Below are positions 1 to 57,259 of a DNA stretch of 63,823 nucleotides, piece after piece. The position numbers and the translations under genes are program-made. Source of the DNA: Bilabrum cf. latius (taxonomy: Eukaryota); contig OZ237777.1 of the NCBI GenBank assembly GCA_965178125.1, forward strand, positions 124,001 to 187,823, in the 5' to 3' direction. The notes under the pieces are model-generated. The model was not told where the DNA came from, searched no databases, and worked only from the letters and a program-made list of their open reading frames with translations. Position 1 is the first letter of the stretch. Each line of letters opens with the position of its first letter.

Positions 1-30
1 GGACGGCTCGCTTGCAGAGCCAGCGATCAG

Positions 31-2364: not shown

Positions 2365-2600
2365 ATCCTGTACTGCTTGTTCGGAGTTCAGTAACAAATG
2401 TGTAGACCCACCAGTTTATGGTGCTGAGAAAGAGAGCGACGGGGCACAGCACCAGCGTCAGACTCCCGCCGCGGGGTCGCCGGGACCACTGGGTCGCCTC
2501 CTGCGATCCCTGCCGCCTTTGATGACGCTTGGGCTGCTGTGTTGTGCAGCTGTTCCACCCACTTGCGACCGGCAACAGCCTTCTTGCATGCTGCAATCTG
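2365..2600 (-). mobile_element. Fragment of a second LINE family (family B), adjoining the truncated end of the HECT pseudogene
   Basis: Its reverse complement matches about 38590-38830, which runs directly into RT motifs (LYIDLNGTFD). Positions 2400-2515 also match 45770-45883. Confidence 0.7.
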
Positions 2601-2649
2601 CTTCACCCACGCGGAGGAGTCGTGCTGGCAGACGTACTCCACGGTCATA

Positions 2650-5600: not shown

Positions 5601-6960
5601 CCTGACTGCTTGCGGTACGTGCCGGTCATCCGGCCGTTCTTCCAGTAGCCGAAATACCTCTCGCCGTCAGACACTAGCAGCTCGCCGTGCCCATGCCTGC
5701 AGCCCTGCACAAATAGGCCAGAAAATTGCTTCGGGCTGTCACGACCAACGTTCGAGTCATACTTGATAGTGTGCTTGCCGCTCTTGAGCCGAGGCGATGC
5801 GAACACTCCAACCTCCCTGCTGCCGACCTGCACAACGTAGCCCTTGCCCCCAGACGGCCTGTTGAGGTCCTTCAAGAGCGGGCACGCTGCCTTGTCGTTT
5901 ACAAAGAATTGAACTGAATTGGTCTACGTATCAAACTCCACAGTGACCGTGTCTCCTGCCTTGAAGGGCTGCAGCCCAGAGTTGCGACTGCCCTCCTTCC
6001 GGGTCGCGCCATGGGCAAAGTAGCCAGCCTATCCCTCGGAGTCCCCGGGAGCAGACGAGGAAGACGCGTCACCTGAAACTATTCCAACGCATGCATGCAC
6101 GCGGGCACCGCCACGATTGCCACTGGCGAAAGTGACATCGACTAGCACGCGGCCCTAGGTAAAGTCCACTTTCGCGGGCGCCTTTCCGTCCTGCAGCTTC
6201 GAGATGTCTGGTTCAGCGGAGCAAGTCAGTGTTTCCATGCGCCACCCATCGGCAGAGTTGCCTTTGTGTCCTTTTTTTTTTTTTTTTTTTGCAGCGATGC
6301 AGTCAGACCGTCCACTGAGATGGCTGCACAAAGGCAACTCTGGCTGTTCGGGTCTACAACCTCGGCATCGCCTTCGCCACTGACCTTGATTCGCTCTACC
6401 AGATGAGCCTCCCAGTGTCCTCGCAACACGTTACTGCGGCCCCGCCAGTCGGTGATGTTGTGTACAGCGCGACACGTCGGACTCCATCCAGTAGCTTGCA
6501 ATCGCAGCAGCTGCTGCTGGGTCGCTCCTAGGATCGCCTTGAATTCCTTCGAACTGATCGGCACAAGCTTGTGGAAGCGAGTCTGGGAGATCCTTCTTCA
6601 GATACGCCCTACCCACAAGCTCTGTCCTGGCCAGCGACTTCGGCAAGTCCAAGTACCCTACCAGAGGCACCGTCCCCGGGTGGTGCTTAGCCTGCTGTTC
6701 CCGTACAGAATGCTGTTCGGCAGCAGGCTTGCCCTACTTCCGGGCGACCAGAGCGCCCCCAAGCAAATCGAGGGCCTCGATGACCTTCTCGGGCTCGCAC
6801 GGCCTGAAATGCACACTTACAGCCTGTGACAAGGGCTTCTTCCAAGTGTCACCAACCTCGCCCGATTGCGCCTTGGCCCTCAGGTAGCCCGAGAACTCGC
6901 GCCAGTCGGCCCCAGGCTGCAAGGTGGACTTATGAGTTACGCAAGAAAGTATAGGCACAC
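2650..6960 (-). pseudogene. HERC-like E3 ubiquitin ligase pseudogene (SPRY - MORN repeats - SPRY - N-terminal part of HECT)
   Basis: With TAG=Gln the ORF pieces join: SPRY1 (FKAGDTVTVEFDTQTNSVQFFVND), MORN-like (FSGLFVQGCRHGHG..YFGYWKNG), SPRY2 (RGRHYWEV..GDRIGVLLNMDEGKVSF), pre-HECT ARFCVLHALN..LLPLVDL, and HECT motifs FVFGQ, FFVKF, SGPYR, LLVPS and YFVLGRLVGACIRH..VPVSIAPSVFRFL. Real lesions: in-frame TGA at 5555 and 3816, frameshifts near 6560, 6340, 4780, 3330 and 3270, and no HECT C-lobe. The 5' boundary is approximate. Confidence 0.85.
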
Positions 6961-7636
6961 TAGGAAGAGCATCGAAGGCAGTCTACAGCTCTCGAGTTGT
7001 CCCAGCACCCGAGGCGGCTGCAACCACAGGCGTCGTGCTGGCAGACGTTCTCCCCAAGTGTTGCCACACTCCGTTGGCTGGCGCACCATTATCGAGCTTG
7101 TACTTCGTTGGTCAAGGACTACGCCCCCATTGAACTCCATTCTGGACACGAGGGTGTAGGAACCGTGGCGGCGAATGCGTCTACGGGTCCATGTTCAACT
7201 TGCGAGGTGCTCGCGAACGTGTGCTCCATGGCGTCTCGCACGCATCAGCCGCCGAGTCTGCATACCAGGTGTCTTCAAGCAGACACATGAATGCGCCCAG
7301 GCATGCCCGTTCTAGGCAAGGCATATGATGGATACGCCCAATCAAAACCGCCAGTGGGGTTCTGCAGCAACGCCCTGCGTGCTGCACGGGCTCGCGCGTC
7401 ATACCTTGCGGACGCCGTGTTAAGTTCTGTAGATGGCCTAGGTGTCCAGCTCGACACTGCCATGCCTGGACAAGCAAGTCAACTCCCGCGCTACAGCCAT
7501 CAAATACAAGCAATGTGATCTCTTCACGCCTAGAAATCTCCGGAATCGCTGAGATTGACTATCAGCGCAGCTGCTATCATTTGCGATGCCAAACAAGGTG
7601 ACCCAAAGCACGCGTGCACGGGCGCTATCGAGACCA

Positions 7637-15120: not shown

Positions 15121-15180
15121 GTCTGCAAGTAACAATCAGCTGCAAGTAACAATCAGCTGAAAGTAACAATCAGCTGCAAG
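15121..15180. repeat. 17-bp tandem repeat (CAGCTGCAAGTAACAAT) x about 3.5
   Basis: Directly visible. Confidence 0.9.
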
Positions 15181-15510
15181 TTTTGTGAGATTGAATCAGA
15201 TACAATTGAAGCTGTCAATTGAGTAGATACAGTCATGGAATGGTTGTGGAATTGTGGACCAAACCAGTGAACTTGATTGACAATCAAATAAATTTAATAC
15301 AAACCGAGCAAGAGTATGATTGTTTGATCTTATTGTTTATCTTTATTGATGAGACATTCACGCGCTCTAATTCTGGCATCAGCATCGAACCCCATCCGGC
15401 ATTAGGATCAGTACATTCACAACTGATTTGGATATATTGCATTGCTCAATCAAAGATTTACGTTATCGTTGGGACTTGATGTTATTCAGATGCTTGCGAA
15501 TCTTATAATT

Positions 15511-22243: not shown

Positions 22244-23160
22244 CCCTGGGTGCTTTGTTAAATAGCTTCCAAATACATATTTTAAAGTGGCAAGATCCAG
22301 ACACTGCCAACTGCGCGTTCAAGAAGCATGCTGTTGAAGCCCAGGAACGATGACAGGTCGCACGCAGAGGCTGTTGCGGCTGGCTGCGACCAGACAAGAT
22401 GAGATCTTGCACCAGATTCGCCATCAGTCAGAAACCTTGAGCGACTGACTGCCGCACAGTGGAATGCAGCAGGCGCCTATCGTGGAATCGCGGAATACAC
22501 GCAATGCTGCAGGCTTTGGCCCCACCCCGCGTTCCTCCAAGCATCAAAGTCGGGTGGTCGGGGTACTCAAGAAGCTGGTGGCTGACGGGTGCTGGGGTCT
22601 TGGAGCCTGCTGGCCAGCGTGGGGTAGTGCGTGCCTGCGTTAGCTGCCGAATCGATTCACCCTAGCTGCCTCGTGTGCCGCCACCGCAACGATCTCCCAA
22701 CAGCATAATCCTAGCGCAATGGTGAGCTCGCAGTACCGGCAGGTACCTGACATCACTAAAAATCTTGGAGCTCCAGCACCAGGCCAGCGGCCTACATGTG
22801 GGATGGGTCGTATGCCCACACTTCCGACAAGCAATGTGGACAGAGCTGTAACAATGAATAATCAGTTGTAGGTTTACTGCAGAAAGTGCACGATGAACGC
22901 TTCGACTGGCATGTGGTGGCTCGAACTACAAGGCTGAATTGTCGGTTCCTAGTTAGCTTAGTAAATAGCCACGTTTGACGGCCCATTTTGCACACGGAAG
23001 CTGTGCAATACAAATTAATTTTTATGTTTGCGATCAGTGTCTTATAGGGGATCAGGATGGCCAAGGAATAGCCATACTTGCAGCTGCAATCCGGTAATCA
23101 CTTCTAGCGCACTAAAGTGCACGTAACTATACCGGGGAGCTCCGCGGGCGTGGCACTGCC

Positions 23161-26100
23161 ATGACCTAGACTACATAGACGGGCCAGACTGATCACCAGC
23201 GTGCCCCAATGCAACAGCAACTACCGGCTGCGGCTGCCATTGACACACCCCCGGGAGCAACAGTGACTGCTCCGGAACAACCAGGTCGAGGCATGGTTCC
23301 TCAGACATTGTTCGGACGGTTCACTAACATGATCGGAGGTGGACCTGCGATGCAGCCTGCAGAAACTCGGTAGTAGACGACGGAACCACCGCAACAGACT
23401 GCAGCACTACCGCCAGGGGCACCAGCAGCGACGCAAGGACTCGCCCTAACGCCAGCAGCGACGCAAGGACTCGCCCTAACGCGGGCAACACAGGTCGACT
23501 TCCACATCCTCTCGCCTAACAACATGGACAAGAGGGCAGGTGATATAGAGGGCACCTGGGGAGTCGACAGTGCGAGGCTCAACCGATTCAAGCAGGGGCA
23601 ACCAGTTGGAAAAGGGAACGCAGCCTCTATCCACATGACGGAGATCCCGCAGCGCACAAGACAAGCCAACGGATACTGCCTGATAGATTCACTCCAGGCA
23701 CTGGGGATCCACGTGGATTCGGAGTTCTTTAAGGCCATGGCACGCATGCAAGGACTGTACGCCCGCCTGTGCCTCCCACAGGAGATCACCCGGACCTCTT
23801 TCTAGGAGACCGAGATCTCCAAAGAATGCCTTGCGGAGGCCATCTGGATCATGGAGGACCACCTGGTTTTCCCAGACACGGTGAACGAGTGGATTACTGC
23901 CCTGCTACGAGTCCGTATGAATATGAATACAACGGATGACCTCGTTGCTGAGCGAGTGCCGGCGGGAACTCGCATCTGGAGGCAGGTCGGTGAGAATGCA
24001 GAGACGCACGGGAACAGGCTCATGGCTATCTCTGGAGGCAATAAGCGAGCCCTGATTAGGTTTTGTCTTGCCCTTCCTGTAGTGGCAGCTCTGTCAGTGT
24101 CGGTGTATGCGAGGAGGTCGGACATGGCCACGAGAGACTTCGATGCAGGGGCACACGCAAGAGAAGAAGCAGCGGCGCTGGTGGCCGCAGCCCAGCGCCG
24201 CACTAGCGACCCCTTCAAGGCCCAAGTAGCCTGGTATATCCAACAGGCGGTGGCTACCTACACTGCAGACGGAGTCTCGGTGGGAGAGCTACCTTGCTCG
24301 CTCTCCGTCACGCTCGCAGCAGAGATCACGAGGACGGCCATCATGAGCATCGCAATCCAAGGAGAGAACTTCTCGCTACATCGCCACCTGCCCAGTTCGA
24401 CTGAGACGATGGGATCAATCGGGGCGAGAGGATGCGTCAGGGTGGCAGGAGGGCACTACTCCGCAGTACGACTAGCCGATCTACCGCTGAGTATGAGAAT
24501 GGACTCGGGGCTACACGGTTTTTCATTTTCGTCCGGAAGCAAGTCCCTCCAGGAAACCCTGACGTCGATCCCACACAGTGTGGCCGAGTGCCTCTGGAGT
24601 CCCGGCGGCGGAGGAACTGCGCTTCTGACTACTCCGTACGATGCATTTGAACCACTCGTGGTAGGCACGGGTAACCTCTTCGGGCCGCCAGAGCACTTAG
24701 GCTGGCAGGGATGCGCGTAGCTCCCCCTCGCCGTTCTAGCTGGCCTAGACCCCAGCTCCACCATCATGCACACACTCCGCACCTATTTTGGCGAGGAAGG
24801 GGAAGGAATCCACGGGCTTAGCCTGCGAGGACTCACACTGTCAGTGATGGCCCTGGCACAGCAGCGAGGGGGTTCAGTGCGACTCCACCCAGCCGACAAA
24901 GAGGGGACCAGCCTTGCCAACTGGTGTGAGCGACTCAACTCGGACGCCACCGATGACCAAGCGATCCAGGGCACGATGAATATTGCCATCTCCCGCACCC
25001 ACTGTGAGGTCTTCATCCCTACAGGAATCAATCCGCCGGGTGGACACGGGTCCCGGAGGCACGCCTGCCTGGTGCTGCGACCTGAGCAACGGGAGGAGGA
25101 AGGAGATGCGGATGCCAGAGTTGTGCGTACGCTGTCAACGAGAGGGGAACTGAACGAGGAACCGGTCATGGTCCTATCAGTCCGCCCAGGAGACCAATGG
25201 GAGGACGGAGTGACCGGGGCGGAACTGCTTGGAGCTCTCCGGGTGATGCTTACGGATGAGCAGAGGACCGATAGGACCTGGATACCGGAGTGCTTCCCCT
25301 GGATCAATAACCGCAATGTGGTAGTGGGGGACCGAGAATCTGTGTGGTTAGTCGCCCCCGGGACAAGCACGGCACATCAGCCACGAGGCGTCCAAGGTAC
25401 TCGCGGGGGCTGGGATCAGATCAGGATCATGGACACGACCCCGCCCAAGCAGGTCAGGATTGCAACCAAAAATCTGGGACGCAAAGGGAACCTCGAAGCG
25501 ATGGAGGTTGCCCTTACGGAGACCAAGATGCCCGATGTGTTTGTTGGCACGGAGACACAGGATGCTAGAGGACGCTACGTCACTGACGTCCCGGACCTGT
25601 ACGCGATGGAGACGAGGGCAGGAAACGGAGCCCCACACGGGGTATGCGTCGCCGTCAAACGAGATTCAGGCCTCGTACTGAGACGGTGGGCAGACATGGG
25701 AGATGATGACCTGGACGCGCCGGACTGCCTCGTATGTGACGTCCTGCACCACGACCGACACATGCTGACGGTGATAGCCTGCTACAACCCACCGCAAGGG
25801 GCTGCCCTCGGGGCAGAGACAAGGGGCTCAGTATTGGGCAAGGCTTTCGTGGTCGATCCCCAGCTGACCCTTGGACAGCGACGGAGTCAAGGACCGGCAG
25901 GCAATTTCACCAGGGACCGACTTGTGGTTACCGGTGACTTCAACCCGACGTAGGCCCGGGACCAAGAGGGAGCTGGTCAGATGGACTGGTATCTGGAGAA
26001 CGACATGGGTATGATCGACATGTACCGAGCACCTGCAGGGGGCGGGCCTACGCACAGAGGAGGCAACACACTGGATGCCATCTGCATCTCCACTTCTGCG

Positions 26101-29100
26101 CAGCTGCAGCTAGTGTCCAGTGAAGTGGCTCAAGAGCCAGGCACATATTCAGACCACACGGGGGTGATTGCAGACCTGCTGGTCACAGTCCCAGAAGTGG
26201 AGGACCCGGCAACGCGAGCAACTGCAGTCCCAGCAACAACGGAGCAGGACGATGACGCCCCCTTCAGGGCAGCGTACTCACGGGTGTCCGACATGCATGT
26301 GCAGCAAGAACGCCTGGTTTGGGACTATTACGTCAAGGAATTCGGGTAGGCTACAAGTGCAGTCCGCGACATCACTCATTGTGTGCTCGACGCAATTCGC
26401 GACCTCAAAAGCTCGACGGGAACCTCGGCTGACCGAGAGGCTGCAGGGCAAGCGGTTACGCAGGCCGTGTCCTCCGTCAAACTGCTTCTGCAAGGATGTT
26501 TCACGGCAGCAGCCGAGACTGTGACAGGCCGACAAATGGCAAACACCGGCCAGGCCGGGCACGTGGAAGCGTCACGCAAGCGCCACCGCAGGACCTGGGC
26601 GGCACGGACGAGATGGGCTGAAACGTGGGGAAAAGCCCATGCCAGCCTCAAGGCCCTTATCGCGGGACCAACCACGGAACAAGCTCTTTCAGAGGCCAGA
26701 ACATGCTTGGCTGCACATCGCCGAGCCAGCCTGCGCCTCGAAGGGCGACAGCGGGGGCTAGATGGACGGATGCAGGCAACACTCTGGGGGAGCACAGAGG
26801 TGAACCAGTAGGCCCATGAGGGACAGGAGTACTGGACGATGCTCCTTGCCAACCTGGACCATGATCGACGGGCTGTCTTCGAGACCACCGAGCGAGGGGC
26901 ACGCAGGACGGGCCACGCACTGCGGAACATGCTGGGAACAGCAAGTCCGAGGGAAGCCCACCGATAGATCGCTGATGCAATCTCTAGAAGGCAACGAGCT
27001 GCACCAGGACTGGAACCAATCACGAACCTAGGCGGAGAGGTGCTTACGGCCGTCGAGGATATCCTAGAGGCACACGCACAGCAGCTCTCTCACGCAGGTG
27101 GGAATGGAAGTGCGGATGTGGGCGGATTTATGGCCAGGATTGCGCCGCACATGCCCAGGGCAGCGACACCGCTCAACCTATTCTGCAGGTCGAACGCAGA
27201 GGTGGATCAAGCACTGGACAAGCTCAAGCACAACAAAGCTGTGGGACCTGATGGGATCAGGGCGGAATTGCTGACCAAATGCTAGCCATGCTCTGAGGAG
27301 GACGGGTGTCTGCGGCGAAGTGACGCTCTGTTGGACCTCCTCAGGGCCATTTATAATCTCACACTCTTCTCGGGGATTCAGCCTGAGGCCTTTCAGGAGG
27401 GGTTCATGCGGCCGGTCTCCAAGCGCAAGCAGGGCACAGGAGTCACCGGAGTCGACGAATTCAGGCCAATATGCTGGACCTCGGCCCTCTCGAAGGTCGT
27501 GAGCACCATCGCAAACCAGAAGGTCATGTGGTACTGCGAAAACCACGGACTCTTCGGCCAGGATTAGGCCGGATTTCGCATCGGCAAGAACTGCCAGCAG
27601 GCCTACTCAGCGGTGATGGAATGGATTACCCAACGAAGGGGTGCTGGAGGTTTTCTGGTATTCTTTGACATCAAAGGGGCATTTGACAGTTGCAAGTGGA
27701 ACATCATCGAGGCCATCATGACGGAGCAAGGATGGGGACGCCAGACGGTCCGCTTTCTCATGGCCCGCATGCAGGTGGCCATCCGCGTTCGAGACCCACT
27801 CACCAGGAGGACTATTGAAAACATCGTGCATTGCGGAGCCCACGAATTGATTTGCAGCCTCACTTTAATGCAGGTCGCTTCAATTTGCGCGGCTTCGCTT
27901 GTACGGCCACGCCTGCTTGAGCCCTGTCTCCGCCACTGGCAGGAGCACCGGCACCGGCAGTTTCACTCTATATCCTAAGGCTGAGCCCAAAATCAATAAT
28001 CTTAATATGACCGCGCTGATTGACCATCATATTCTGAGGCTTGAGGTCTCGGTGGAGTACCCCTGCCTCGTGACATGCCCCGATCGCACACACCAGCTGC
28101 GCCGCAACGATCTGGAGTGGCTCTGGGTCTCTACCAGAGTGCAGAAGACGGCGGGCACCCCCTAGGGCGAGATTCTGTCTCCCACCATCTTCCTGGTACT
28201 GATGGGGGTTCTCCTGGAAACGCTGCGGAAAGAGAGGCTCCAGCACGGGCACCATCAAAGGATCGTGACCGACACCGGACGATACGTTGAATGTGGACAA
28301 GTCGGGTACGCAGACGACTACGTGGCACTGACGTCGAACTGGAACGAAGCAGTGGCGGTCATGAAGCTAGTCAAGAGCCTGTTTGCACTTGCGGGCATGT
28401 AGCTGGGAATCAAGCCCCTGACAGCATCGGGCCAGGGAACCAAGACAGCGATCATGGCCTTTGGCTACGCTCGGGACTCAATTCCTGGGGACATGCCAGA
28501 GGGCGTCGCATGCAGAGCAGCGGACGCGGGAGAGACGGATGGGGAGTGGACCATCCCACTTGCCTCATCCTACCTGTACCTCGGTCTACTCATTTCGACC
28601 CAACCGGTACGGATCAGCCCAGATGAAGTAGCTGGGCTGACGCAGGCGAGAGACATCTGGGTAATTGATATGGCACCCCACGTACGCAGGAGGATTGCGA
28701 TGGCGTACCGGGCGGCCAGGGACATCACACGAGCGGCGGTGAACGGCAACTGGGCGGTCTCCCTGCACGCCCAGCTGCTCCATGCAGGAGCAATCACGAG
28801 TGCATTCTACGGAGCAGAGGCAGCGGCATGTGCAACAGGATGGGACACCTTGTCAGGATTAGGATATGGTTCCCAAGTTTTCTATGGGATGGAACTGAAC
28901 CTGGAAGTCCTCAAGATGCTGGACAAATTCCTGCTGGATACGCGCTGGATGATTGTCAGCGGATCGACACAGGTAAGGCCCTTCACCATGGGCGGTCGAT
29001 ACGTGCCAAACCTCGCGATGGACACTGAGCTACTGACGGCATCGGCAGCAGGGCGTGTTGCTATGGGCCTGCTGGACCTGATCGAGTGTCCCTCGAAGAA

Positions 29101-30196
29101 GGGCCTTGATGTTGCGGCCAGGTTCATCCACCAGGGCCGATTCCTGCAGGGACCACCAGTACAGACAGGCCCACTCGGGGCCGCGCTGGCACTGGGATTC
29201 AGGATCAAGATGGCAGGGTGGACCCAACGGATCGATGACGCGAAGGACTGGCTGGGATGCCAGGAGACTGCAAAAAAAGTCACAAAGTGGAGGAAATCCA
29301 AATCCGGAGCTGCTGACCGATCGTTCACAAGCCTGAGCCTGGGATGCTCGCACGATCCGGCACTGTCGGATTGGGACCGGGAGAGAGCTGCGCTTGGAGT
29401 GGTCATGCTTAACCGGTACGCAACGAAGGGACGGTATGCCTTCGGACCAGGAGCCATGCCAACAGCAGCGGTGGTGCAGGAATACGGCCACCAAGGAAGA
29501 CGAATTCTGCGCATCCGAGCTGGACAATACCCGCAACAGGGCACGCCCAACCTTCAAGTGATGGGCACCGCGGTAGAGCAGATGGAGCGGGCCGAGCATG
29601 ACCATCATGCCGGAACGAGACCGTGGCAACCCGATGATGCAGATCAGAATAGAGGGAGGTCCCCTGCCTCTCTCCGGAAAGCATGGGCGAAGACAGCTCT
29701 CGCTCAGGACCCTTGGGACGAGAAGCTGGAGCGCACCAGCAGGGCCAAGCCAATCGTCGAAGACGCACTCACTCGGATAGAGCGTACGATTGCACGGTCA
29801 TCGGAACGTACAGCTGTCAAGGAGCTGGCCAACCGAGTGGTGCAGGTGATCAGGAACCAGCTGCGCTAGCAGGAGTAGCTGACGTGCAGGCAGTGGATGC
29901 GAGGCGATGCGGCGGCTGCTCTTGCCGCCACGGCCACGCAAGAGCTGATAGCGGCAACCAATGCGAACGCTCGGCTACAGCGACGGATGTTTAAGCCCCA
30001 CGGCTTGCTAAGGGACATAGAGAGGCAATGGGCCAAAGGCATGAGCGCGTGCATGCTAGCCTCTCTGAAGGACCGTGAGACGCAGAGACGGTCATGGAGG
30101 AGGAAATGGTGGGTCTCGGCAGGGGACCCTGATGTGGGACTGGACCGCGCTTTGTGCCGGGCACATGCTCCGCACCTGTATGCTTTCTCCCTGTGA
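23161..30196 (+). CDS. LINE polyprotein: putative OTU-like region, APE endonuclease and reverse transcriptase; interrupted by a ~290-bp insert
   Basis: About 16 in-frame TAG and no TAA/TGA outside the insert. [61 protein letters not shown], [TAG][17 protein letters not shown][TAG]GEILSP, GYADD, YLYLG. Terminal stop is TGA at 30194. Confidence 0.93.
27826..28117 (-). pseudogene. Ser/Thr protein kinase fragment (subdomains VI-VII) lying antisense inside the LINE RT
   Basis: The minus strand reads [44 protein letters not shown]. The RT frame shifts across it. Boundaries are approximate. Confidence 0.88.
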
Positions 30197-31929: not shown

Positions 31930-34900
31930 TCACAGGTGGGACACGAGGACCTTCCCCTTGGCGACCAGGCCCTGGGCAAGCTCCTTAACCGAACTGTGCC
32001 CCGCACTGGATGCGTACGGCCGTACACCGTACTTCCGGCAGAGAGCCAGTAGGCGATCTTTGTTCGTCGTCCCAAGCAGTTCTAGCTGCCCCTAGGTGGC
32101 AAGCGGCGAAGATGCACCACTGCTAACAACGCCGGGGCCCTGCTGCGGCCGGGGTACAGGCTGCGCCTGCCGGTCTGATCTGCTGTAGATGACAAGTTGT
32201 GCACCCTCACGCTCCCATTCATGCAGGCCGGGAGGCTTGCTTCGCTTCATCAGATGTATATCGTCGAAGCAGAACCACGTGTCGCGGGCTGCAACCTTTT
32301 CCACGGCTGGAAGCACGACTCGCCGACTGTGCTCAAGCTGTACTTGCAAGGCTTTCGAGGCCATCGGCCTCGTGCCCAGCTTCGAACAAAGGATGCCGAA
32401 GGAGCGATTTAAAGCCTACAACCCGCGCCCCGCTCCACCCGTGGCACCCTTGTGGTAGCTTACGAAGTGGCCGCAGGACGCGTTTGTTCCTCTATGCACA
32501 GCCACGCCCACCAGATTGTACGTGCGGGCCACGTCGACGGGCGAGCTGGCGTGCTTCTGGCGGTCTGGTGAGTCTACACGAGGCCGCTTCGCTGCTGGCT
32601 CAGACGTGTCCGCGGACGGCTTGTGGAGCTCTTCTTGAAGCCAGCGGAGGAGCTGCGTATGGTTGGCTTCAGTGAGCTAGGGCCCGATCGTGCCCGTCTT
32701 GGTGTCCACCAGGCCCACCACCCATGGCTTGGCAGGCTCGGTCTTGGTACCCACTTTTGCGCTGACCAGCTGCCCCTGACGGCTTCGCGACGGCTGCAAC
32801 CATACTCGCGCACATCCTCCCATTTCATTTAGGACGTCATCTTGCATCAGGGCTCCGCGAAGGAACTCAACGGTGGATCGTTCCCCTGGGGGCAGCACAG
32901 CAGCTATGAGCCTTAGGCCTTGCTCCTTAGCTTGGTGGCAGGCATCCGTGAAACTGCATTGCAGCAACATCGGTGTCAGACCTCCCAAGTCAATATCAGT
33001 ACCCTAGCGTCCTCCGCCCGCTTGCTTCTTGGATCTTCTGTGTCTCACGGCCTTCCTGCGTGATCTACCCTTGCCCTTCGCATGCTTTTTCCTTGTTGCG
33101 TCCCAGTCCGAGTCCGAGTCCGAGTCCGAGTCCTTGTTACTCTTGGACGACACTTCTAGAAGCAAGGTCCTCGGGTCGATGTATCCAACCTGCTACCAGG
33201 CCTGTGCTTCTCCCTGAATTACACGATCCTCAGCGCCTGTGCCTACCCCCGCGCCTGCGCCCTCGCTTGCGGCTGCCTACGCACTGAGTCTGGCCTGCTC
33301 GCGCTCGGCAATGATTGGCGGCAGAGCCGGGCCAAAGGCGATGTCCAATGCTGACTTGCTATCGGAGGGCACGGGTCGCCTGGGGTCCAGAGGCTGGCAG
33401 AAGAGAGCGCCACAGTTCCATACCGACAGGCGTTTGATGTATTCGTGCAAATCACGCATTGCTTCCTCCGTCGATAATTGCTTGCCAGGGCCTGCACTAG
33501 CTGCTGTTGGTGGCTACGTGATGCTGCTGGGCTGAATGCGGGGAATTTCTCCGAGAAGTTTCTCGACCTCGGCAACTTCATCCCGTAGCCCAGCAAGTTT
33601 CTCCGTTTTCGAGCGACGGTCCAGTACAGCTTTCTAATTGCGGCTTTCGGCGGGAGCCCCAGGCTTACGCGTACTGCTAGCAGCGCTCGTGCGGCTGGCA
33701 GAAGGATTGTCGCGACCATTCAAAGTGACGCCATTGCTGTCATCGCTTGCGATCAAATTGGAGTCGGAGGCGCCATCGCTCTTATTGCTCGCCTTCAAAC
33801 CGGAGACGGGGGCGTGATCCGGTTCCTTGAGCAGGCGCGTGATAAGCCAACCCAGGTGGGCATCATTACCCTTCGACGCAGCATCCGGATACGACACGGC
33901 CTCTGCGACTAGCCGTGAGGCCTGCAGGGGTGCTGGCACATAAGCCTGGCAGACGGACCCTTGGAGGCTATGACGCTACAAATCTATTCTCTTGCTCAGA
34001 CTGACGGGAGTGGTAGTCTTGAGCTTCACGAACCCACTGGGAGTGTGCACCTGCCGTGTACGAATCAGATGATACAGCATCAGAGGTGGCAGCTGCCACG
34101 TCATTAGGCTGTGCAAGGCGGACGATCGGCGCCCGCATTGGCTGCAGCACGAATCTCCTACCGCGGCGGGCTCGAAGGGCATCTCTACGCATGACTGCAT
34201 CGTTGGATTCATGCCATTCTGGACCCGGTAGTGCGATGTCCGGCAGTTGCCATGAAGAGATAACAACGAGTTTGAAACGCCCCAGTTGACCTCTGCGCTC
34301 TTGATCTGCCGGACTTCAGCCTTCTTCAGTCTATGCTTGGCGCTTCGGACGGCATGAACGATGGCATCGGTCGATGGCATGCGTTTGCTCAGCTTTTGGA
34401 TGGGACTTGTGGCCTAACGATAAGCCTGCACTGCCTGTTTGCCGTCATACAAAGCCGAGTTTCTTTCGTGCTCGGCAAAGTCCTCTGCTTCGGCTTGCAA
34501 TGGGCACCTAACTTCTTGTAGCGACTCCCCTTCGCTCACTCGATAGCCACAATCTGGATATGGGCAGCATTTTTCTTTCACTTGGCCCACTTGAAACAAG
34601 CTTCGGAGGCTACCAGTACATCGGCTGGCGTACATCAGCGCCTTTGTACGGAGCAATCCGTGAGTTCGCTCTGGCAGCTCAGTCGAGGCCGCCCAGCTGT
34701 CTACGTGTTCGGGGCATATGCCAGCGCAGAGCAAAGTATCACGCACATCAGCTGGAGTGACTGGATCAGGTTCCCCCAGCGTGCGATTGAAGAACTTTGA
34801 TAGCTGCGGTGCACCTGCTGGAATACTTAGGCCGGCCACCCACCTCAATGATTCGAATGACGAGACCTCTACTTTTTGCCGCGCGGCGAGTTCGCTCAGC

Positions 34901-35159
34901 TAGCTCGCAAATGTTGGCCCAAGCCGACCGAGGAGCTAGCGCAAAATCGGGGTGAAGCCTCGGTCAAGATTCTTGGCCTCATCGTCAAGGCAATCGATCA
35001 GTTGATTTGTAAACTCACTTGCGTCCTAATGCGATCTATCCTCATTCCCAAAATGCGGATACGATTTACCGATACAGGCCCGAAGTCCTCTTATTGCTTC
35101 ATCTGCCACGTGACGGAGGGCATGACACGCAGCAGAGAGGTGCCTCGTCACGTCACCTG

Positions 35160-35209
<50 letters not shown>

Positions 35210-35282
35210 GTGCTGCTGCTGGTGCTGCTGCTGCTGGTGCTGCTGCTGGTGCTGCTGCTGCTGGTGCTGCTGCTGGTGCTGG

Positions 35283-35321
<39 letters not shown>

Positions 35322-35976
35322 CGGCGAAAGGAGCCAAGTCTGCCGTACTGCTGGTGATTGGCTCTGTGGTCGATTTTACCTGCAGCGCCTGCAGTCGCAT
35401 ATGGACACACGCCAATACGAACATGTGCCTGCAAGCGCCCTATGTCGGGACACCACCTTCGGGTTTCATGGCCTCTTTTTCGAGGCTAATTGCGTGGCTC
35501 GCTAAAGAACTGACGAGACTATGGCTAACCACGGCTAGTGAATCGAGAAACATTTGCATCACCACGGGTCGCAGCCTTGTTCCGCGATTTTGCTAGCTTT
35601 TGAGCCGTTCCAGCTCATTCTGGAATGCTCTCCTCGCATCGTCCTCTGTTGGGCAGTCTGCCAGTAGCACGACACCATCTCTGACCGCAGCCTCTAGCTC
35701 TGAACGTTTCCAAGTTCTAGCATACGGCATAAGTAAGAGTACATGATCAATGAATTGTTGCTACCCGAGTAGGACCTACATGCTTGAATTTGAATAGCAA
35801 AAATTATTATATCGTCGAAATCCAATGCTCTATTGCTCGGATTTTACCGGATTAAACCATGGCCTGGGTTCAGAGCCTGACGCCAAAGCCATGACGGTAA
35901 TTCTGTCCGTGATTTTGTCAGCGCGATTTGTATCTGTGTATGCCAAATAATGATTTAAGCAAGCCACTGGTGACAT
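31930..35976 (-). CDS. Ubiquitin-specific protease (USP, peptidase C19), about 1350 aa, with large insertions including a UAS-like segment
   Basis: One frame with about 18 TAG and no TAA/TGA until TGA at 31930. Cys box GFRRYNNFCYSNSSM[TAG]VL, H[TAG]DASEF, CSQC..LPPLMLYHLIR..RIDL, His box YNLVGVAVHRGTNASCGHFVSY, WFCFDD, AQLVIYSR. The true start may lie further upstream. Confidence 0.9.
35159..35320. repeat. (GCT)n/(GCTGGT) microsatellite encoding a poly-Ser/Thr tract in the USP
   Basis: Directly visible; it keeps the minus-strand USP frame. Confidence 0.95.
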
Positions 35977-36024
35977 TCATATATACACGTTACAGAAACA
36001 TCTGTATTTAGAACGTGGCTCTAG

Positions 36025-37608
36025 GCGGCATGCGCAACAGGATGGGACTGCTTGTCAGGAGTAGGACAAGGTACTGGCATCTTCTACGGGATGAAGCTAA
36101 ACCTAGAAGTCCTCAGGATGCTGGACAAATTCCTGCTGGACATGCGCTGGATGATTGCCAGCGGATCGACGCAGGTAAGGCCATTCTCCATGGGAGGCCG
36201 ATATGTGCCAAGCCTTGCGATGAACACCGAGCTGCTCACTGCAACAGCAGCGGGACGAGTTGCAGTGAGCCTGCTAGATCTGATCGAGTGCCCCCTGAAA
36301 AAGGGCCTTGACGTAGCAGCCAGGTACATGTACCAGGGCCGACACCTGCAGGGACCACCGCTACAGACGGGCCCCCTCGGGGCCGCCCTGGCACTGGGAT
36401 ACAGGATCAAAAAGCCTGGGCGGATTCTACATTCTGACGACGCGAAGGACTGGCTGGGATATCAAGAGACTGCGAAAAGAGTCACGAAATGGAGGCGATC
36501 CACGTCCGGAGCTGCGGAACGGGCATTCACAAGCCTTAGCCTGGGATGCTCGCACGATCCAGGACTGTCAGACCAAGACCGGGAGCGCGCCGCGTGCGGA
36601 GTGGTGATGTTTAACCGATTTGCAACGAAAGGACGGAATGCTTTCGGACCAGGAGCCATGGTGACTACAGCTGCAATGCAGGAGTACGGTCATCAAGGAA
36701 GACGAATCCTGCGCATCCGAGCTGGACAATACCCACAGCAGGGAACGCCCAACCTCCAGGTATCGAGCACCGCGGTAGAGCAGATGGAGCGGGCTGAGCA
36801 TGAGCGTCACGCCGAAACGAAGCCGTGGCAACCTGATGCCGGGGATCAGAATAGAGGGAGGTCGCCCGCCTCTCTTCGGAAGGCATGGGCGAAGACAGCT
36901 CTCGCCCTGGATCCCTGGGACGAGAAGCTGGAACACACCAACAGGGCCAAGCCAATCGTCGAAGGCGCGCTCATTCGGATAGAGCGCACGATTGCACGGT
37001 CCTCGGAACGTACAGCTGTCAAGGTGCTGGCCAACCAAGTGGTGCAGGTGCTCAGAAACCAGCTGCGCCAGCTGGAGCAACTGACATGCAGGCAGTGGAT
37101 GCGTGGTGATGCGGCGGCTGCCTTAGCCGCCACGGCCACGCAGGAGCTGATAGCGGCAACCAATGCCAACGCCCGACTACAGCGACGGATTTTCAAGCCC
37201 CACGGCTTGCTAAAGGATATAGAGCGGCAATGGGCCAAAGGCATGAGCGCGTGCATGCTCGCCTCTCTGAAGGATCGTGAGACGCAGAGACGGTCATGGA
37301 GGAGGAAATGGTGGGTCTCGACCGGGGACCCCGATGTGGGACTGGACCGCGCCTTGTGCCGGGCACACGCTCCGCACCTGTATGCTTTCTCCCTGTGAAG
37401 GCAACAGGCTGGGGGCCTGTGGGGGACCACACTGATGGCAAAGAATGGGGACTCGGCGGCATAGGTTGAGAACGGGGGGCCTTTGGCCTGAAAGGGTCGG
37501 GGGTCTTGTAGTCCTTTGTTTTAGGGCTCCTCTGGATCTAGGTGATCACCCAAACCCCCTCGGGGGCGACGGTGCATCTGGGTGTTTATGGAATCTTTAC
37601 CCAACAAT
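36025..37608 (+). mobile_element. 5'-truncated second copy of LINE family A (448-aa C-terminal ORF 36052..37398)
   Basis: Collinear with about 28823-30405. Differences are largely synonymous and the TGA stop is the same. Confidence 0.95.
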
Positions 37609-45600: not shown

Positions 45601-45769
45601 GCTATGTGGTAATGGAATCGTCATCATCTACCCCAGATTCGTAGACCGCAAACATAGTGGTCGAGTCACTCATTCAGGCTGTCACATTCACACGCGGTGC
45701 CTATTCGATTCCTAAATCTGGCCGCCATCGGACCTGCTGCTACTGGTCCTTGTCAAACTTGCTCAGCGC

Positions 45770-45883
45770 ATGTAGACAGCCAGCTTGTGGTGTTGGGAAG
45801 TAGAGCGACGGGGAACAGGACCTGGGGTAGACTCCCGCCGCAGAGTCACCTGGTCCGCTGGGTCGCCTCCCGCGACCCTTGCC
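45770..45883 (-). mobile_element. Diverged LINE family B fragment abutting the satellite
   Basis: Aligns with 2400-2515 and with the reverse complement of about 38680-38795. Confidence 0.75.
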
Positions 45884-45889
45884 ACCAGC

Positions 45890-50150: not shown

Positions 50151-50364
50151 TAAGTACTACAGCAAGGTGGCCTGATTGGTATACGTCGAGATCTAATGTC
50201 TTATCCGTGGCGTCGTCTTGTTTGTCTCCCCAGTCTGCCATTAGATTTCTCACTCTCATGTTGCAATGCATGCGTGCCGCGCTTTTGTCCAACCACATCT
50301 GCAACCACATCCTATCGTTCGTAGAATAGCTGCGAATGGGGACGGAGTAGAATTTGTGATGGAA

Positions 50365-53300
50365 TCAAAAGTTTATGAAGGAATATTTAACGTGGCGTGC
50401 CTGCATGCAGGCCGGATTTCTTTGTCTTACAACGTATGCCTTCTGGCTCATCGCTTCTGCTTCCTCGCATGATTCTATACAAGCGTCGCTGCAACGATAC
50501 CATTGTCTTCGCTTTAGCAGGTATGCGACGTAGTGGCCGGAGCCGACCTCTGCGCCTTCATGGACAACGAAGGAGCGAAGTTTGTACTTCACCTTATCGC
50601 CGCTTGTGGACTCAGGCGCAGATGATGAGCCACCTGCGTCACCTGATGACGCCATCGGCAAAACAAGCAACTCACTAAAATCAACGGGTGCTTCATTTTT
50701 GTGGTAGACGGGGGCAGTCTGAGAAGAAGCAGAAGATGCAGCACCACTACGTCGACCCGAGCTGATCACGGGGAATGCTGCAGAATCAGCTTGAAAGCGA
50801 AGCAAATGTAGGACAAGGACATCCGGATGTCCGCGTATTTGTGATTGTGTACACGCCGATCCTGCTGACTTCCTGCTAGCGAACCTGCACGATTCACACT
50901 TATACTCAACCTACTCCGGCTCGAAATATTGGTCGAGTAGTCGCTGCACGGTCAATCTGCTTTCACTACTAGACGGCAGCTACAGCGGCAACATAGGGAT
51001 TCTATTCGATTTTTCCGAGCAGCAGTTGCACGCAAAGTGCTGGCACCGTGTTTCAATGCACAGTTCGAACGTAACCACTGGAGCTACCGCGTGCAGAAAA
51101 TGATTAAGTACCTCCGTGCAGTCCTGCTAGTGTGTGTTGCCTTTAAACTACAGCCGGTCCCGGATTGATGGCAGAGCAGGGATACTTGACGAAACAAGGA
51201 ATGGAACGCACTTGGACAATGCCACTACGCGTAGAAGAGCAGCAGCGCGATCTATGAGAGGTTGGTCCAACGCCTGATCCTATGCAGCAGCGGCACTTGA
51301 GCTCGAAGATGCTGATTGTTGACTCGATGCATGGGTTGACATCGTAGGGATGGACAACATCGTAGTAGCACTAGCACCGGCAACCGGTCCAGCACTACGA
51401 ATAGAAGGACGCCAATCTGTAGCAGCAGGATCAGAAGGAGGACCGGCACCAGCTCCGGAAGCCGGCATAGCTTGATCACGATCTTCATGCTACAATGCAT
51501 CACGGATGCAGGTCACGAGCACCTTACTGCACTGTAAAAGTGCCTATAGAGGCGCGTTAAGGTAGCAAGTGTTGCCGTCGTTTTGGATGCCACGAGTCAC
51601 AGCGCCATCAACAGCATGCTCGTACCCTTCGTCGATGCGTTCAACTAACGATCGCACGGAATTGATGAAACGTGGACGTCTACCAGGGCCAGTCCGCAGT
51701 GACTTTACTAAACTTCCTGTCACATCCATTGGCTTGTCGTATTCATCAACACGCTCTTCTATGAATAGCGCACTCGAAGTTGCCGACGAAGGCGCCATAT
51801 TGGTGCAAACCAGCGGCCAATCCTCCAGTCGGATTGGCCCTTGAGGCTCCGCCGCCGTTGTTTGCTGCGTATCCAATCGTTGCGCTGTGCCGATCCGCGA
51901 GTCATCAAGCAGATTGAGACGTTTGGCAGACTAATACGCAGCCATCAGGAGAGGGCGACTTTTCCAAAAAGCAGGCAAGCTACCGAGTTTAAACGAGCCA
52001 TCAGTCAATTCGTCTGTCACAAACGACTGCATCAGCTAGCTGGCGCCGGCAGTAACAAATGCGGCCTTGGTTGCCTCGCTCCAGTGGCCCGTAGTTGTGA
52101 AAGGTGACACATCAAATAGCTTCCGTTTGATGGCATAAGCCAGCATTGCCGCCCTCACCAAACCAACCTTTGGCTTGTTGTACTTACGAAATAGATCCGC
52201 TTGGTCGCGAAACTTCAGGGCGAGCTTGTCAACGAGTTCGTGTGCGCGATAATCAACTTGACCGAGATTGTGTTCTATGAAACCATCCCGATCTGCTGTG
52301 ACCGTGGAGTCTAGACCAATATCCGTTGCATGCAAGGGTGGGTGGCTACTTGATGACTCCTACAGCGCTGCCAGTCCCTCGGCTACCTGCATTACATGAT
52401 CTGCAAACTATGTTCCCGCATCACGAGCAGCATCGCGCGATTCGCGAACAGCATGCCAGCTTCGGACCTCAATCAAGAGCCGTTTCCGCTTCGCATCGCT
52501 AGGATATAGTCGTTTTGTAGCCCACTGTGTAGGAATAGAACTCGTATCAGTCTTTTCGGGTTGCAGTGGAGCCGGACACAATTGAACCGATGCATCAGAA
52601 GCCCAGCTATCGATCACCGCTTCGTTGCTTTTGAAGTTCAATTTCATCAGAGCGGCCAGCCTCGACAAATTTGGAGCTGCTATCAGAGGCGTGGTCGACC
52701 GACGACCAGATATGATGGGGCCTGCATCCTCCTGCTAGTGTGCTGCAGAAGCGCTCGATATCCGCCCACAGTCGTACTGGATCAACGATCCAAACACGAT
52801 GTTTGCAACATCAGTACTATCGCCGATTTTGAGACAGAAAAAGTCGTCAGATGAAGGCGTTATTGGAATGACCTATGCACCGATGGATCTCTCTTTGTGA
52901 ATCAATGCTAGGGCAGCGATCCCTACACCACGTCGAGATTCGTGCGACATAGACAGCTCTCTCCCGATGTCAAGCTAATTGGCGGATCCAACAAGACAAG
53001 AGGCCGTGTTTGGAATCACTACAGCACCGCACTTCTGGAGAACGCGCTCTATCCCAATGGCTATCTAGTCCCTGCTATAGCTAGCAAGCAACAGACGATA
53101 AATTGCGCAGGATAGACTAGGCACTGCTGTGTCTACCTGTCGGCGAGCCCCGAGGCCAGCCGGAGTTTTCAGACGCTTGCTGATCTCGCACAATGTCCAT
53201 AATCCAGACTCAATGCTCAGTGCAGCCTGCATTGATGAAAGACGAATAAGCTACACTCCGGTCAGGGCATAACAGGGAAACTTCCTAACGATGGTCATCA

Positions 53301-56085
53301 GTGAACCGAGGTTAAAGAAACGCAACACCAGTCCACCAAGACTTGATATTCGCATCTATACAGAACTCTCAGTACCGGTCTAACCGACCAACGCCGACTC
53401 TAAAACCCACTACTTGCCTCTGATGCGACCCTGATACGAGGCATTCATGGCGCTTCCGAGAGATTGTACCTACCACAAGACTATGGCAATTTCCAACAGT
53501 TGCGTAAATACAACATCTCGCTTATTCCACTTACACCTGGCATCCTAAAAGATCTTGCGCAGGCTCGCGGCTTTGTCGTCGGCATGCTAGATGGGGACAC
53601 TCTTTGGCATCAACGACAGCTACGCACCCCCTCGCTGCAGCAGTAAACGGCTGGTCAGGGGTGGCATTAGGGGCAAGGCACAATTCATGATGGAAGCGGA
53701 CAGTATCTTGCCGTTACGGTCTGATGAACATGAAATCATGCCCTCGAATGCTATTCGACTCAGATAAAAAGCCCAACTGAGCAATTTCGTGCGGATCTCA
53801 TCGGCCGGTGGGAGATCCATAGATCTGGCTACAATCTTCTGAATCAACGCTCCGGCGGCTTTGCTACTGGCCGACATCAGTGAAGCTAAACGATGGGCTT
53901 GCGAGCTGGTAACGAAGGTCACCATGTCTAGGCTGTCGTCGCGCTCCTGATCATCTTGGGTTCCTTTTGGCCCACCACGCCCACCGCTAGCGGAGGGCAA
54001 AGCCGGCTCCACAGATCGTGGATGGCGCGACTCTGCGGCAGCAGGACTGGTGCCTGTACTCCGAGATACCGAGCCCCCGTCCGGATCGATGGTTTGTTGC
54101 AATTGCGTTATCAGATGACTGGCTAACGAACAGCTAGCAGCAGTTGTGTTCACCTCGAATCGAACCTTTGCGGACCCTTTTTCAGGGAGCATTGCTGATA
54201 TCCTAGCGTTGGATTGATTGATGCAGTTCTGCAAATGCAACTCAAAGCCCCGAAGAGTATCGCCGTTCTTATCCTTGTGAAGAGACTTCAGCGCATGCTC
54301 TAGTGGAGTAGCGGGGGAAACATGATCCGACTAGGACTGGGCTGCTCGCCTGAAGCTATCAGGCATGTATACGCTGAAATCCTTTGACGTCAGAATCAGG
54401 AGCATCAATATAACTCTATGACGCATTGCTTTGCCCAATGTAGCTAGTCGTGACGATATCGCCTCGTCCGCGACTTTACCAGTACTGAACGCCAAGCAAT
54501 TTAAATTTTCACGGTGTACCTATGCAGCCGCAGGATGCCCCAAATACGGAGCAAATTGGTCCTTAAAATTGAGGGTTGTATGCAAGCTAGCCAGGGATGT
54601 CCCCTGCGTGATCCCGGCCAAGGCCTGCACAGATTCCTAGTTGAACAGTCGACCCAGTGTTGGGGTGGCGATGAGGCTTCCAGAGCTCTTAGCAGTTACT
54701 GTCCATCCGAGTCCAAACGAGATATAATGGTCCATGGGCGACATGACTTTAAGATGACCATCTGACATTTCCGAGCCTGCGACCGGTATATCGAAGTGCG
54801 ACACTCCAGCGGTATCCAACGGGCGAGAACTACTGCTAGACGAGTGCGCGCTACCCAGGGACGCAATCGTCGCCCCAACGCCGTCTGGGCTGCCCATGTG
54901 GCCGGACCCTGGCTCATCTATTGCACCCGAGTCCAGTGCAGCTGTTCCCTGGCCTCGACCCAATTCAAACGAAGCCAGGTCCCCACGCTGATGCCGAGTA
55001 GTGCTAGCACCACCGGCAGCCGCTTGCGACGACACCGACTTTGGTGCACCTGAACCCTTTCCAGCAATCTGGGCAAATCCAAGCTCAGACTTCTGCCCGA
55101 CGAGCGATACATGCAAGATGACCATTTTGGATGCAGTATAGCACAACTTCGCAAGCTGGTCAAACTTTTTGTCTGTCAAGCAGCCCCCTGACCGCTCCTT
55201 TAGCAAAGTTTGAATATCTGTCAATTTCCATCTTCCAATGGCGTTAGCTATACCTTCAACGATCGTCCCTGATGCCACCTTGCAATGAATTTTTGGCTAC
55301 GATTGCACTGCTTCGTGCTTTCGTGCCGGGTCAGCAACGATCGTGGTGCGGAACCTCGTTGAAACGTAAAGCGAAAGAAGGTGCGAATCAATCTGGAGCT
55401 TTTTGAATTGCTGCTACATTGAAACTAGGACTAGCCAAAGCAAGATCGATCTGGCAATGTCTTTGCTATTGCCGCTCAAAGACGGGATACGCATGTTAGT
55501 CCCCAAGCCGCTTTGGCCAATCGTGCTATCACGTCGGCCCATCGTGCGCTCCAGAACTTGAAGGTACTCATTGGGGAGCAGGAACGACACGTGTAAGTCA
55601 CCAAGCATAAATACTGAAGCTGAACACTAGCATTCACAAACCGCAGTTGGTGGGCGGCGCATCCAGTTTGCAGCTTGAATGAACCGCTTCACATCTACCA
55701 TACCCCCAATACATGACTTGTAGCCAATTGATTGGTCCTGACCACAAATTGTTTCGTAATAAATGCAGGTCTATGAGTCCGACGGAGGGTTCTGGTTGCT
55801 CGAAGATTTAACAATAAAATCACCATTTGACCCCGGCAAACTTATTAACAGCCCTTTTGGCACTTGACTAGCCAGACAACATAAAGTTACTGCATCTAGA
55901 TCTGGCTTACACGTGACCAACTATGCGGGAGTATGATTAAACAGTTTGGGCAAGGCAGTCTAGTCTACAGCCCCAACATCTTGATCCATGCATGCCAGAG
56001 CAAGGCTTGGAAACTCGGTTTCAGAACTCATCAAAATTCTAGCGATTTCAATATTGTCGGCGTATTCAAGTTGAGGCTTCGCCAT
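50365..56085 (-). CDS. Large protein (at least about 1900 aa) with a C-terminal USP (peptidase C19) domain; 5' end unresolved
   Basis: The frame is open from 56247 to TGA at 50365 with about 33 TAG and no TAA, TGA or frameshift. GIQNDGNTCYLNAPL[TAG]AL, H[TAG]QDCTEVL, YKCESC, PDVLVLHLLRF, YKLRSFVVHEG..GSGHYVAY, WYRCSD, KAYV. First ATG is at 56085; a GTGAGT donor-like site at 56251 suggests upstream exons. Confidence 0.93.
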
Positions 56086-56576
56086 AAGGGTCTAGAGTTG
56101 TTTGAATTGAACGTCACCCAAGGAGTTCAATGAATCTGTTTCTATAGCCTTCAACAAGTCTCTCGCTTTACCCTGCGTTGTAAAGACTGAAAATATCGTG
56201 AGACAATGTTGCCGGGATCTGTGTAGTACGGGTATACGGAGAATGACTCACGGCCCCAATGAATTTTGAACGGAATAAACCCAAGCACAACCTTCTCATC
56301 CGTTTGCTGATGGTCCACTCTGGTAAAAATCCCGATTCAGTCTGCATTGTACCAGAGGATAAGAATGTTTGCCGAAAAATTGAGCTAATTTCAATACAGT
56401 TCGGAGTGCTGAGCACTCAAAAAAAGTGCTCTCTCTATGAGTACATCTGAATTGCCACTGCAAGTGCACGCAACATTGATCCGAGCCGAGCACGCCAGAC
56501 CACTCGTGCCACTCTTACATAAGGGTAGAGGAACAACGTGAGCATTATAATGACAGAACACCAATCAAGTTATTCT

Positions 56577-57259
56577 TGTTATATGTACCCGGACATCAGG
56601 ATTGAAGCAACGGGGAGCAGAGGTGAGACGGAAGACGAGGTGGGCGCAGGAGGACAGGAGGTCAACTGCACGAGCGATGGGGCGGTCACGTCCATCGAGC
56701 TGATGTTGGGGCCGAACAAGAGCGGTTCTGCGGGCTCCGTATCCTGCTGGAATGGCTGCAGATGCGTCACGGCATTTCCAACGTCCGCGCTTTGCGGGAC
56801 TACGTGGAGAAGCGGCCCCCCACAGGATCGCACTACCTGTTCGCCGATGAGGGACCAGCCTTCACGTCAGCTACAGTCGCGCGTGAGCTCCGGCGATGCT
56901 GCACCAGCGAGGGGCGCACCCTCACCGGGCACTGCCTTCGGGTGACAGCTATCTCCACGCTATCCCGGCAAGGCTGCAGTGACGGCACTATCCAGCGCGC
57001 CGGTGGATGGGCCTCCACCAAGGCCGTGCGGGGGTACTGCAACGAGGCGCTGTTCGCGCTCAGCGCCCTTCCCCTGCCGGTCGGCACGGATCTGTCCCAG
57101 CCAACTCAGGTGTGGATGGCCGCGCTGGCACATGCAGCGCGAACTGTGTGCAAGTAATGGAAGTAATGGGAACTGCCAACCAGTGGGGATTGCAGCAGCC
57201 GTGAAGATGAGCCAGTGGGTGTGATTGAAGGAACGAATCTGATCTGTAGTCTAGGTTCA
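56577..57259 (+). mobile_element. 683-bp derivative of the tyrosine-recombinase retroelement carrying the recombinase C-terminal half
   Basis: Same termini as 40118-40726. ORF 56762..57157 has ALRDY..LF, GHCLR, GGWAS and RGY, matching the HxLR / GxW / catalytic Tyr pattern of DIRS-type recombinases. Confidence 0.88.

Follow-up and report, generated by a model that had tools for sequence, protein, structure and literature searches.

A GC-rich eukaryote that very probably reads UAG as glutamine and stops at UAA and UGA

We analysed a window of 63,823 nucleotides (nt) from Bilabrum cf. latius (assembly GCA_965178125.1, contig OZ237777.1, positions 124,001 to 187,823 of the forward strand); the window means this whole stretch, and all coordinates are counted from its first letter. 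It has 57% GC, introns that are bounded by GT..AG and removed in RNA, a LINE-type (long interspersed nuclear element) retrotransposon with a reverse transcriptase (RT) domain, kilobase satellites, dispersed repeats at 20-100x single-copy depth and a mere handful of genes in 64 kb; it is nuclear, eukaryotic DNA. Two of the genes belong to the USP family and are called USP gene 1 and USP gene 2 below. Our main subject is USP gene 1, whose long coding frame contains TAG many times and neither TAA nor TGA. From this gene and the other coding units of the window we conclude that UAG is very probably a glutamine codon in this GC-rich eukaryote, with UAA and UGA serving as stops. The features of USP gene 1 are as follows.

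56252..56347, minus strand: exon 1, from the first in-frame ATG (56347), the putative start codon, to the splice donor.
56173..56251, minus strand: intron 1, 79 nt, GT..AG (GTGAGT..CGCAG), containing the TGA at 56248-56250.
50431..56172, minus strand: exon 2, 1914 codons with 33 TAG and no TAA or TGA, the catalytic UCH domain lying inside.
50330..50430, minus strand: intron 2, 101 nt, GT..AG (GTAAGA..TTCGCAG), containing the TGA at 50365-50367.
50201..50329, minus strand: exon 3, with the end of the His box (..LFYER), an extra TAG at 50312-50314 and the stop TAA at 50201-50203.
51544..51546, minus strand: TAG at the glutamine of the Cys box, placed by the homologue column and by alignment with USP36 and Ubp6.
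51127..51129, minus strand: TAG at the first Q of the QQD box, placed by the homologue column.

The initial annotation described about 1960 consecutive codons with roughly 33 TAG, no TAA and no TGA, ending in a complete USP catalytic domain. This description holds on the minus strand, where window positions 50368-56247 form a frame of 1960 codons with 33 TAG, zero TAA and zero TGA; the plus-strand translation of 50365-56247 has stops throughout. The remaining five frames of the stretch contain 12-24 TAA, 16-34 TAG and 31-56 TGA each, and at these rates about 60 TAA and TGA together would be expected in the USP gene 1 frame, in which none is seen (P ~1e-26). The frequency of TAG within the frame is not below its frequency out of frame, and therefore there is no selection against TAG in the frame. 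The glutamine-type codons (n = 109) divide into 41 CAA, 35 CAG and 33 TAG. Pfam places UCH (PF00443) at residues 1552-1939 of the translation, covering positions 1-251 of the 254 in the profile (E 5.5e-22), with both the Cys box and the His box of the catalytic domain present and the closing ..LFYER supplied by exon 3.

The frame is flanked by TGA at 56248-56250 and at 50365-50367. Both triplets lie inside introns, so the ends of the frame are not the ends of the gene. Once spliced, USP gene 1 has three exons and runs from ATG 56347 to TAA 50201-50203 over 1988 codons, with 34 TAG and neither TAA nor TGA inside. Exon 1 is based on the frame being continuous across the spliced joint with an in-frame TGA upstream, and on a contig (record 14 of sequencing run X5, introduced below) that spans 56251-56395. 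The standard code would break this gene into more than 30 pieces, in agreement with the earlier remark that standard-code annotation shreds the genes of this organism.

The sequencing runs that match the window comprise four of one sample, which contain all of the sampled words and are the likely source, and two of another study, which contain 81% and 47% of them; no run on record as RNA is among those that match. Runs X1 (DNA), X5 and X6 (second study) were compared with window positions 50200-58000 as contigs, not as raw reads. Positions 56173-56251 (79 nt) are skipped in contigs of both X5 and X6, and positions 50330-50430 (101 nt) are skipped in X5 contig record 9 (side 130 nt); neither joint is present in the DNA run X1. 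Since joints with GT..AG ends occur in X5 and X6 and none occurs in X1, the X5 and X6 contigs are spliced transcripts. A spliced X5 contig extends 97 nt beyond position 50200, past the TAA stop, and five of the 33 TAG, together with the exon-3 TAG at 50312-50314, are found on a single spliced X5 contig. Across 50200-56487 there are zero letter differences in any run, and the runs of the two studies agree. Among the 22 of 216 pieces listed, X5 covers at least 28 of the 33 TAG codons, X6 at least 14 and either of them at least 30, with other letters at none. TAG is unedited, that is, not converted to CAG, in the dominant transcript of USP gene 1 at the contig level: a search of the transcripts for CAG at TAG sites, proposed together with the initial annotation, found none, the X5 and X6 contigs keeping TAG.

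For the identity of the amino acid, TAG was read as X in the searches, to keep the query from biasing the residue. A HMMER search with the 400-residue USP domain against 1.84 billion representative proteins gave 1535 matches (E up to 0.001); residue columns and a profile were taken from the best 150 of these, with one residue counted per protein. The column of the Cys-box TAG holds Q in 71 of 74 aligned homologues, and that of the QQD-box TAG in 10 of 16. The Cys-box TAG of USP gene 1 also faces Q in the USP36 and Ubp6 chains of the PDB. Over the seven aligned TAG sites the profile log-odds sum to +10.0 bits for Q, versus -0.1 bits for T, the best of the other 19 residues. Scored against Pfam UCH, the domain of USP gene 1 obtains 95.2 bits when TAG is set to Q, 89.6 with K, 87.4 with R, 87.0 with E and 86.7 with S; the remaining readings follow with 84.6 bits for both A and X, 83.3 for Y, 83.1 for W and 82.8 for L. 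The proposals that TAG occupies conserved glutamine positions of the USP family and that the TAG columns favour glutamine are thereby substantiated.

The same pattern recurs in further genes and elements of the window, which are listed here.

31933..35976, minus strand: USP gene 2, 1348 codons with 18 TAG and no TAA or TGA; Pfam UCH at E 5.1e-12.
23116..30193, plus strand: LINE-type retrotransposon, frames 23116-27975 and 27869-30193, with 16 TAG and no TAA or TGA.
35974..37395, plus strand: second LINE copy, 5'-truncated, 474 codons with 1 TAG and no TAA or TGA; 84% protein identity to 28796-30193.
2461..7111, minus strand: multi-exon gene for a SPRY/HECT-type ubiquitin ligase, with in-frame TAG.

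USP gene 2 has TAG in its Cys box (35776-35778) and at a further site (35026-35028). In a local hmmsearch the Cys-box TAG falls on the Q node of the profile that its counterpart in USP gene 1 occupies, a node with an emission of 0.72; the local search was used because global hmmalign put all TAG of this gene in insert states and phmmer aligned almost nothing. In the N-terminal part of the gene (34717-35859), UCH scores 28.2 bits when TAG is read as Q, and the match disappears when E, K, L, S, Y, R or X is put in its place. Between them, the two USP genes use TAG for about a quarter to a third of their glutamine codons, and this proportion suggests that the reassignment of UAG to glutamine is old and fully settled.

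In the LINE, the frame 23116-27975(+) has 1620 codons with 12 TAG and the frame 27869-30193(+) has 775 codons with 4 TAG, two of these TAG, at 27565-27567 and 28163-28165, lying in the RT. The initial annotation took them for conserved glutamines, and RVT_1 scores agree in both segments: 27313-27975 obtains 30.3 bits with Q, 28.2 with L, 27.0 with X, 26.4 with K and 26.2 with E, and 28046-28858 obtains 33.2 with Q, 29.4 with K, 29.1 with E, 28.5 with X and 28.1 with L, the Pfam cut-off being exceeded with Q only. Q is thus the top reading in four of five Pfam substitution tests. A search of the PDB with the LINE RT segments returned chance matches and one marginal match, to R2 (E 0.046), in which the alignment near the TAG cannot be relied on. 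The two LINE copies offer a comparison of their own, with 392 of 466 residues identical and 169 differing codons, of which 97 are synonymous and 72 are not. Both TAG of the first copy that fall in this 84%-identical stretch face glutamine codons of the second, one CAG and one CAA.

The ubiquitin ligase gene has a Pfam HECT match in 2461-3177 (E 4.3e-07) and weak SPRY matches in 3819-4811 and 5558-6430; its HECT exon found no matches in the PDB. All TAG positions cited at the outset are present (51544, 51127, 35776, 35026, 27565, 28163 and 3453), and one of these seven sites, the supposed HECT 'FG-TAG' at 3453-3455, is without support. With TAG read as Q, E, K, L or X, the open reading frame (ORF) that holds it, 3306-3815(-), gave no Pfam match; solved HECT chains are likewise absent from its PDB results, which consist of one unrelated dioxygenase subunit at E 0.28. 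Pfam searches of 40 ORFs with TAG as X found no families besides UCH, RVT_1, HECT and SPRY.

Summed over the five long frames of the two USP genes and the LINE pieces, 6177 codons contain 68 TAG, zero TAA and zero TGA, and in three or more unrelated coding units TAG behaves as a sense codon free of constraint. The same codons include 115 CAA and 156 CAG, and about 50 TAA would be expected if TAA encoded glutamine in the CAA:CAG proportion; none is seen (P ~2e-22). The RNA-supported USP gene 1 terminates at TAA, and both LINE copies terminate at the same TGA, beyond which their similarity persists. Within the window, TAA is not a glutamine codon, and neither TAA nor TGA serves as a sense codon. 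The gene ends seen are few, namely one RNA-supported TAA and one LINE ORF TGA common to two copies.

Several observations weigh against reading UAG as glutamine. Four of the seven TAG in the domain of USP gene 1 stand at variable columns (11 to 115 homologues) in which Q is not the commonest residue, one TAG of the domain sits in an insert to which one homologue aligns, and strongly conserved positions hold just four to five TAG sites. In a SET-like ORF, 10772-11200(+), the scores are 21.3 bits for D, 19.3 for K, 19.1 for E, 18.8 for Q, 18.1 for X and 16.4 for L, all of them below the Pfam cut-off of 22.4 bits. The TAG of the second LINE copy stands opposite an Ala in the ragged first part of the alignment, a comparison that we judge uninformative. 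On the side of the transcripts, X5 and X6 are guessed to be RNA runs, X5 being flagged as 'probably DNA', and their RNA nature is based on the two spliced joints; contigs also drop rare variants, which leaves room for partial editing. There is one RNA-supported gene end, which leaves room for TAG terminators elsewhere. No tRNA gene lies in the 63,823-nt window, and Rfam gave no match in it at the gathering score, rRNA and tRNA included. The support consists of sequence comparison and RNA contigs.

Other explanations compete with a plain glutamine codon. UAG could be context-dependent, meaning glutamine within genes and stop at gene ends, as in some ciliates and Blastocrithidia. Many USP domains end at the ..LFYER point, and the TAG at 50312-50314 follows directly after ..LFYER in a window that has one RNA-supported gene end only; however, the frame runs 37 codons beyond this TAG to the TAA, the spliced contig passes that TAA, 34 TAG would need reading through in USP gene 1, and the window shows no gene that terminates at TAG, which makes a dual meaning improbable. 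Nor is it easy to sustain that some other residue is inserted, be it Leu as in Rhizaria sp. exLh, Glu, Tyr, Lys or Ser. The four variable columns out of seven in USP gene 1, the slight lead of D, K and E over Q in the SET-like ORF, and the alternation of TAG with TTA (Leu) in a 39-nt satellite at 32-613 would fit such a residue, but Q is ahead by 5.6 bits in UCH and by 2.1 and 3.8 bits in RVT_1, the UCH domain of USP gene 2 appears with Q only, the profile gives Q +10 bits versus -0.1 or less for all other 19 residues, and the satellite, open in every frame, is non-coding. We therefore consider a residue other than glutamine very unlikely.

Equally slight is the chance that UAA and UAG both encode glutamine (NCBI table 6), TAA being rare through high GC. 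This is the far commoner variant according to the available text of PMC5304391, and the GC of the window is indeed 57%, but TAA is absent from 6177 codons in which about 50 are expected, CAA, at 115, is not far behind CAG, at 156, and the spliced USP gene 1 ends in TAA. The least credible explanation keeps the code unchanged and puts the TAG down to nonsense-mutated pseudogenes, to RNA editing that turns U into C and so TAG into CAG, or to an error of sequencing or assembly. A LINE copy may be dead, and the RT is here split over two frames; yet decay would yield TAA and TGA as well, of which there are none in 6177 codons, TAG is retained in spliced RNA contigs, and the runs of two studies are identical to the letter over 50200-56487. 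The central proposal of the initial annotation, a reassignment of UAG to glutamine, is hence upheld, with TAG acting as a sense codon, spliced RNA contigs retaining it and conserved columns favouring Q.

The surroundings of these genes deserve a brief description. An array of an 83-nt satellite with 114-nt variants (45986-50172) begins about 30 nt downstream of the TAA of USP gene 1. The ORF 45766-50364(-), of 1533 codons and abutting the frame of USP gene 1, is part of this satellite, being open in all three minus-strand frames, and was rejected as non-coding. Just upstream of USP gene 1 lie dispersed high-copy repeats at 56464-56724 and 57247-57507, where contig depth in the DNA run X1 reaches about 600 and about 2800, versus 28 for single-copy sequence, and where many contigs stop. 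Within USP gene 2, a (TGC)n run at 35160-35321 encodes a poly-Ser tract. The only Rfam match at the E-value threshold, isrG over a (TGC)n run, was dismissed as chance. The truncated LINE copy on the plus strand starts no more than three bases from the point (35976) where the minus-strand frame of USP gene 2 has its 5' end, and the true start of this gene may be affected by the LINE copy or may lie elsewhere. In the first LINE copy the RT is split over two frames around 27741-28133, with RVT_1 positions 5-98 in one and 111-184 in the other; a frameshift or insertion separates the halves, and this copy may be defective.

Other TAG-containing frames contribute little. The 39-nt satellite at 32-613 has about 15 copies of a unit that holds TAG, with TTA in variant units; the ORF 1-1584(+), with 13 TAG, runs through it, is no evidence of coding and was set aside. 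The SET-like ORF has three TAG, one of which adjoins an ..IERGEQL..DYG motif and scores best as Asp, a residue that we take to be common at that position of SET domains. The ORF 58950-60758(-) has 603 codons, 5 of them TAG, ends in TAA and contains 'FSDD-TAG-LL', presumably reminiscent of an RT box, where one would look for a hydrophobic residue, and we counted it neither way; it matches no Pfam family, and its single PDB match is an unrelated chain at E 0.15. A codon-usage coding score trained on the two USP genes was too weak to find further genes. The GC content, otherwise 51-68% along the window, falls to 42% at 14001-16000, and a (CACCAG)n microsatellite of about 203 copies occupies 41395-42613.

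Searches for relatives gave little guidance on the lineage. In a collection of 5.8 billion proteins, the whole USP gene 1 protein, including about 1500 lineage-specific residues, had no relatives at near or shorter lengths, and the LINE frame 27869-30193 had none either. A search of Joint Genome Institute (JGI) metagenome contigs for related loci gave 146 pattern matches and zero confirmed ones, and metagenome contigs contain no exact copy of a 36-nt piece taken from the high-copy repeat. Among the best 150 of the 1535 USP-domain matches, tandem USP arrays of animals rank highest, and the named USP clusters (avocado, pigeons, fishes, a diatom, Tetrahymena) are taxonomically scattered and carry no signal. 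LINEs, satellites and sparse genes would be unusual for a fornicate genome, and the combination of 57% GC, introns of 79 and 101 nt, LINEs, kilobase satellites and few genes is probably a misfit with ciliate macronuclear DNA. An independent and so far undescribed origin of UAG as glutamine, in a lineage that is neither ciliate nor fornicate and has no sequenced relatives, is a serious possibility that we stop short of calling probable.

Nuclear code changes are rare, and UAG and UAA nearly always change together. A further case in which UAG alone has changed, this time in a genome that is rich in GC and has transposons and introns of the ordinary kind, would be an independent data point, bearing on how UAG uncouples from UAA via tRNA-Gln(CUA) and the specificity of eRF1, and on whether a code change needs an AT-rich, streamlined genome. 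There is also a practical side, since standard-code annotation of the assembly would break most long genes, after which homology searches would fail.

As for the mechanism, what PMC5304391 describes, in its available text, leads us to propose that UAG would be decoded by a tRNA-Gln with the anticodon CUA, pairing with UAG and not with UAA. Such a tRNA could arise by a single anticodon change from tRNA-Gln(CUG), and eRF1 would no longer recognise UAG. For Iotanema spirale a change in eRF1, T32G, is reported; the N-domain motifs of this factor are GTS, NIKS and YxCxxxF. PMC5304391 also documents tRNA-Gln(CUA) genes in Tetrahymena and Spironucleus, one base away from tRNA-Gln(CUG).

The code type is that of NCBI table 15 (UAG as glutamine, UAA and UGA as stops), which is already known from four eukaryotic lineages. 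In the available text of PMC11687900 and PMC5304391 the eukaryotes in which UAG alone has become glutamine are Iotanema spirale, Protocruzia tuzeti, Hartmannula sinica and Trochilia petrani; our literature search found none beyond those in the two papers, supplements not being covered. Iotanema spirale (Fornicata; Panek et al. 2017, PMC5304391) is a non-ciliate with the same code and UAA as terminator and is, according to the parts of that paper available, known from a transcriptome only. Its UAG codons are called 'occasional' there, with 204 in 126 genes, whereas here a single gene has 34, about 30% of its glutamine codons. Hartmannula sinica, Trochilia petrani and Protocruzia tuzeti (McGowan et al. 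2024, PMC11687900, available text) likewise use table 15, with UAA as the main terminator. The table 6 lineages, among them many ciliates, some green algae and diplomonads, differ from this DNA in reading UAA as glutamine, TAA not being sense here. Rhizaria sp. exLh (PMC5304391) resembles the present case in being no ciliate and in having a nuclear code that treats UAG apart from UAA, but it reads UAG as Leu, and L has the lowest UCH score of the ten readings compared here. Finally, the alternative-code giant-virus bins of PMC13524828, as its available text presents them, are viral genomes, and the likeness lies in TAG as glutamine with TAA and TGA as stops; if our reading is true, a eukaryote of this kind would be a candidate host type for giant viruses that read TAG as glutamine.

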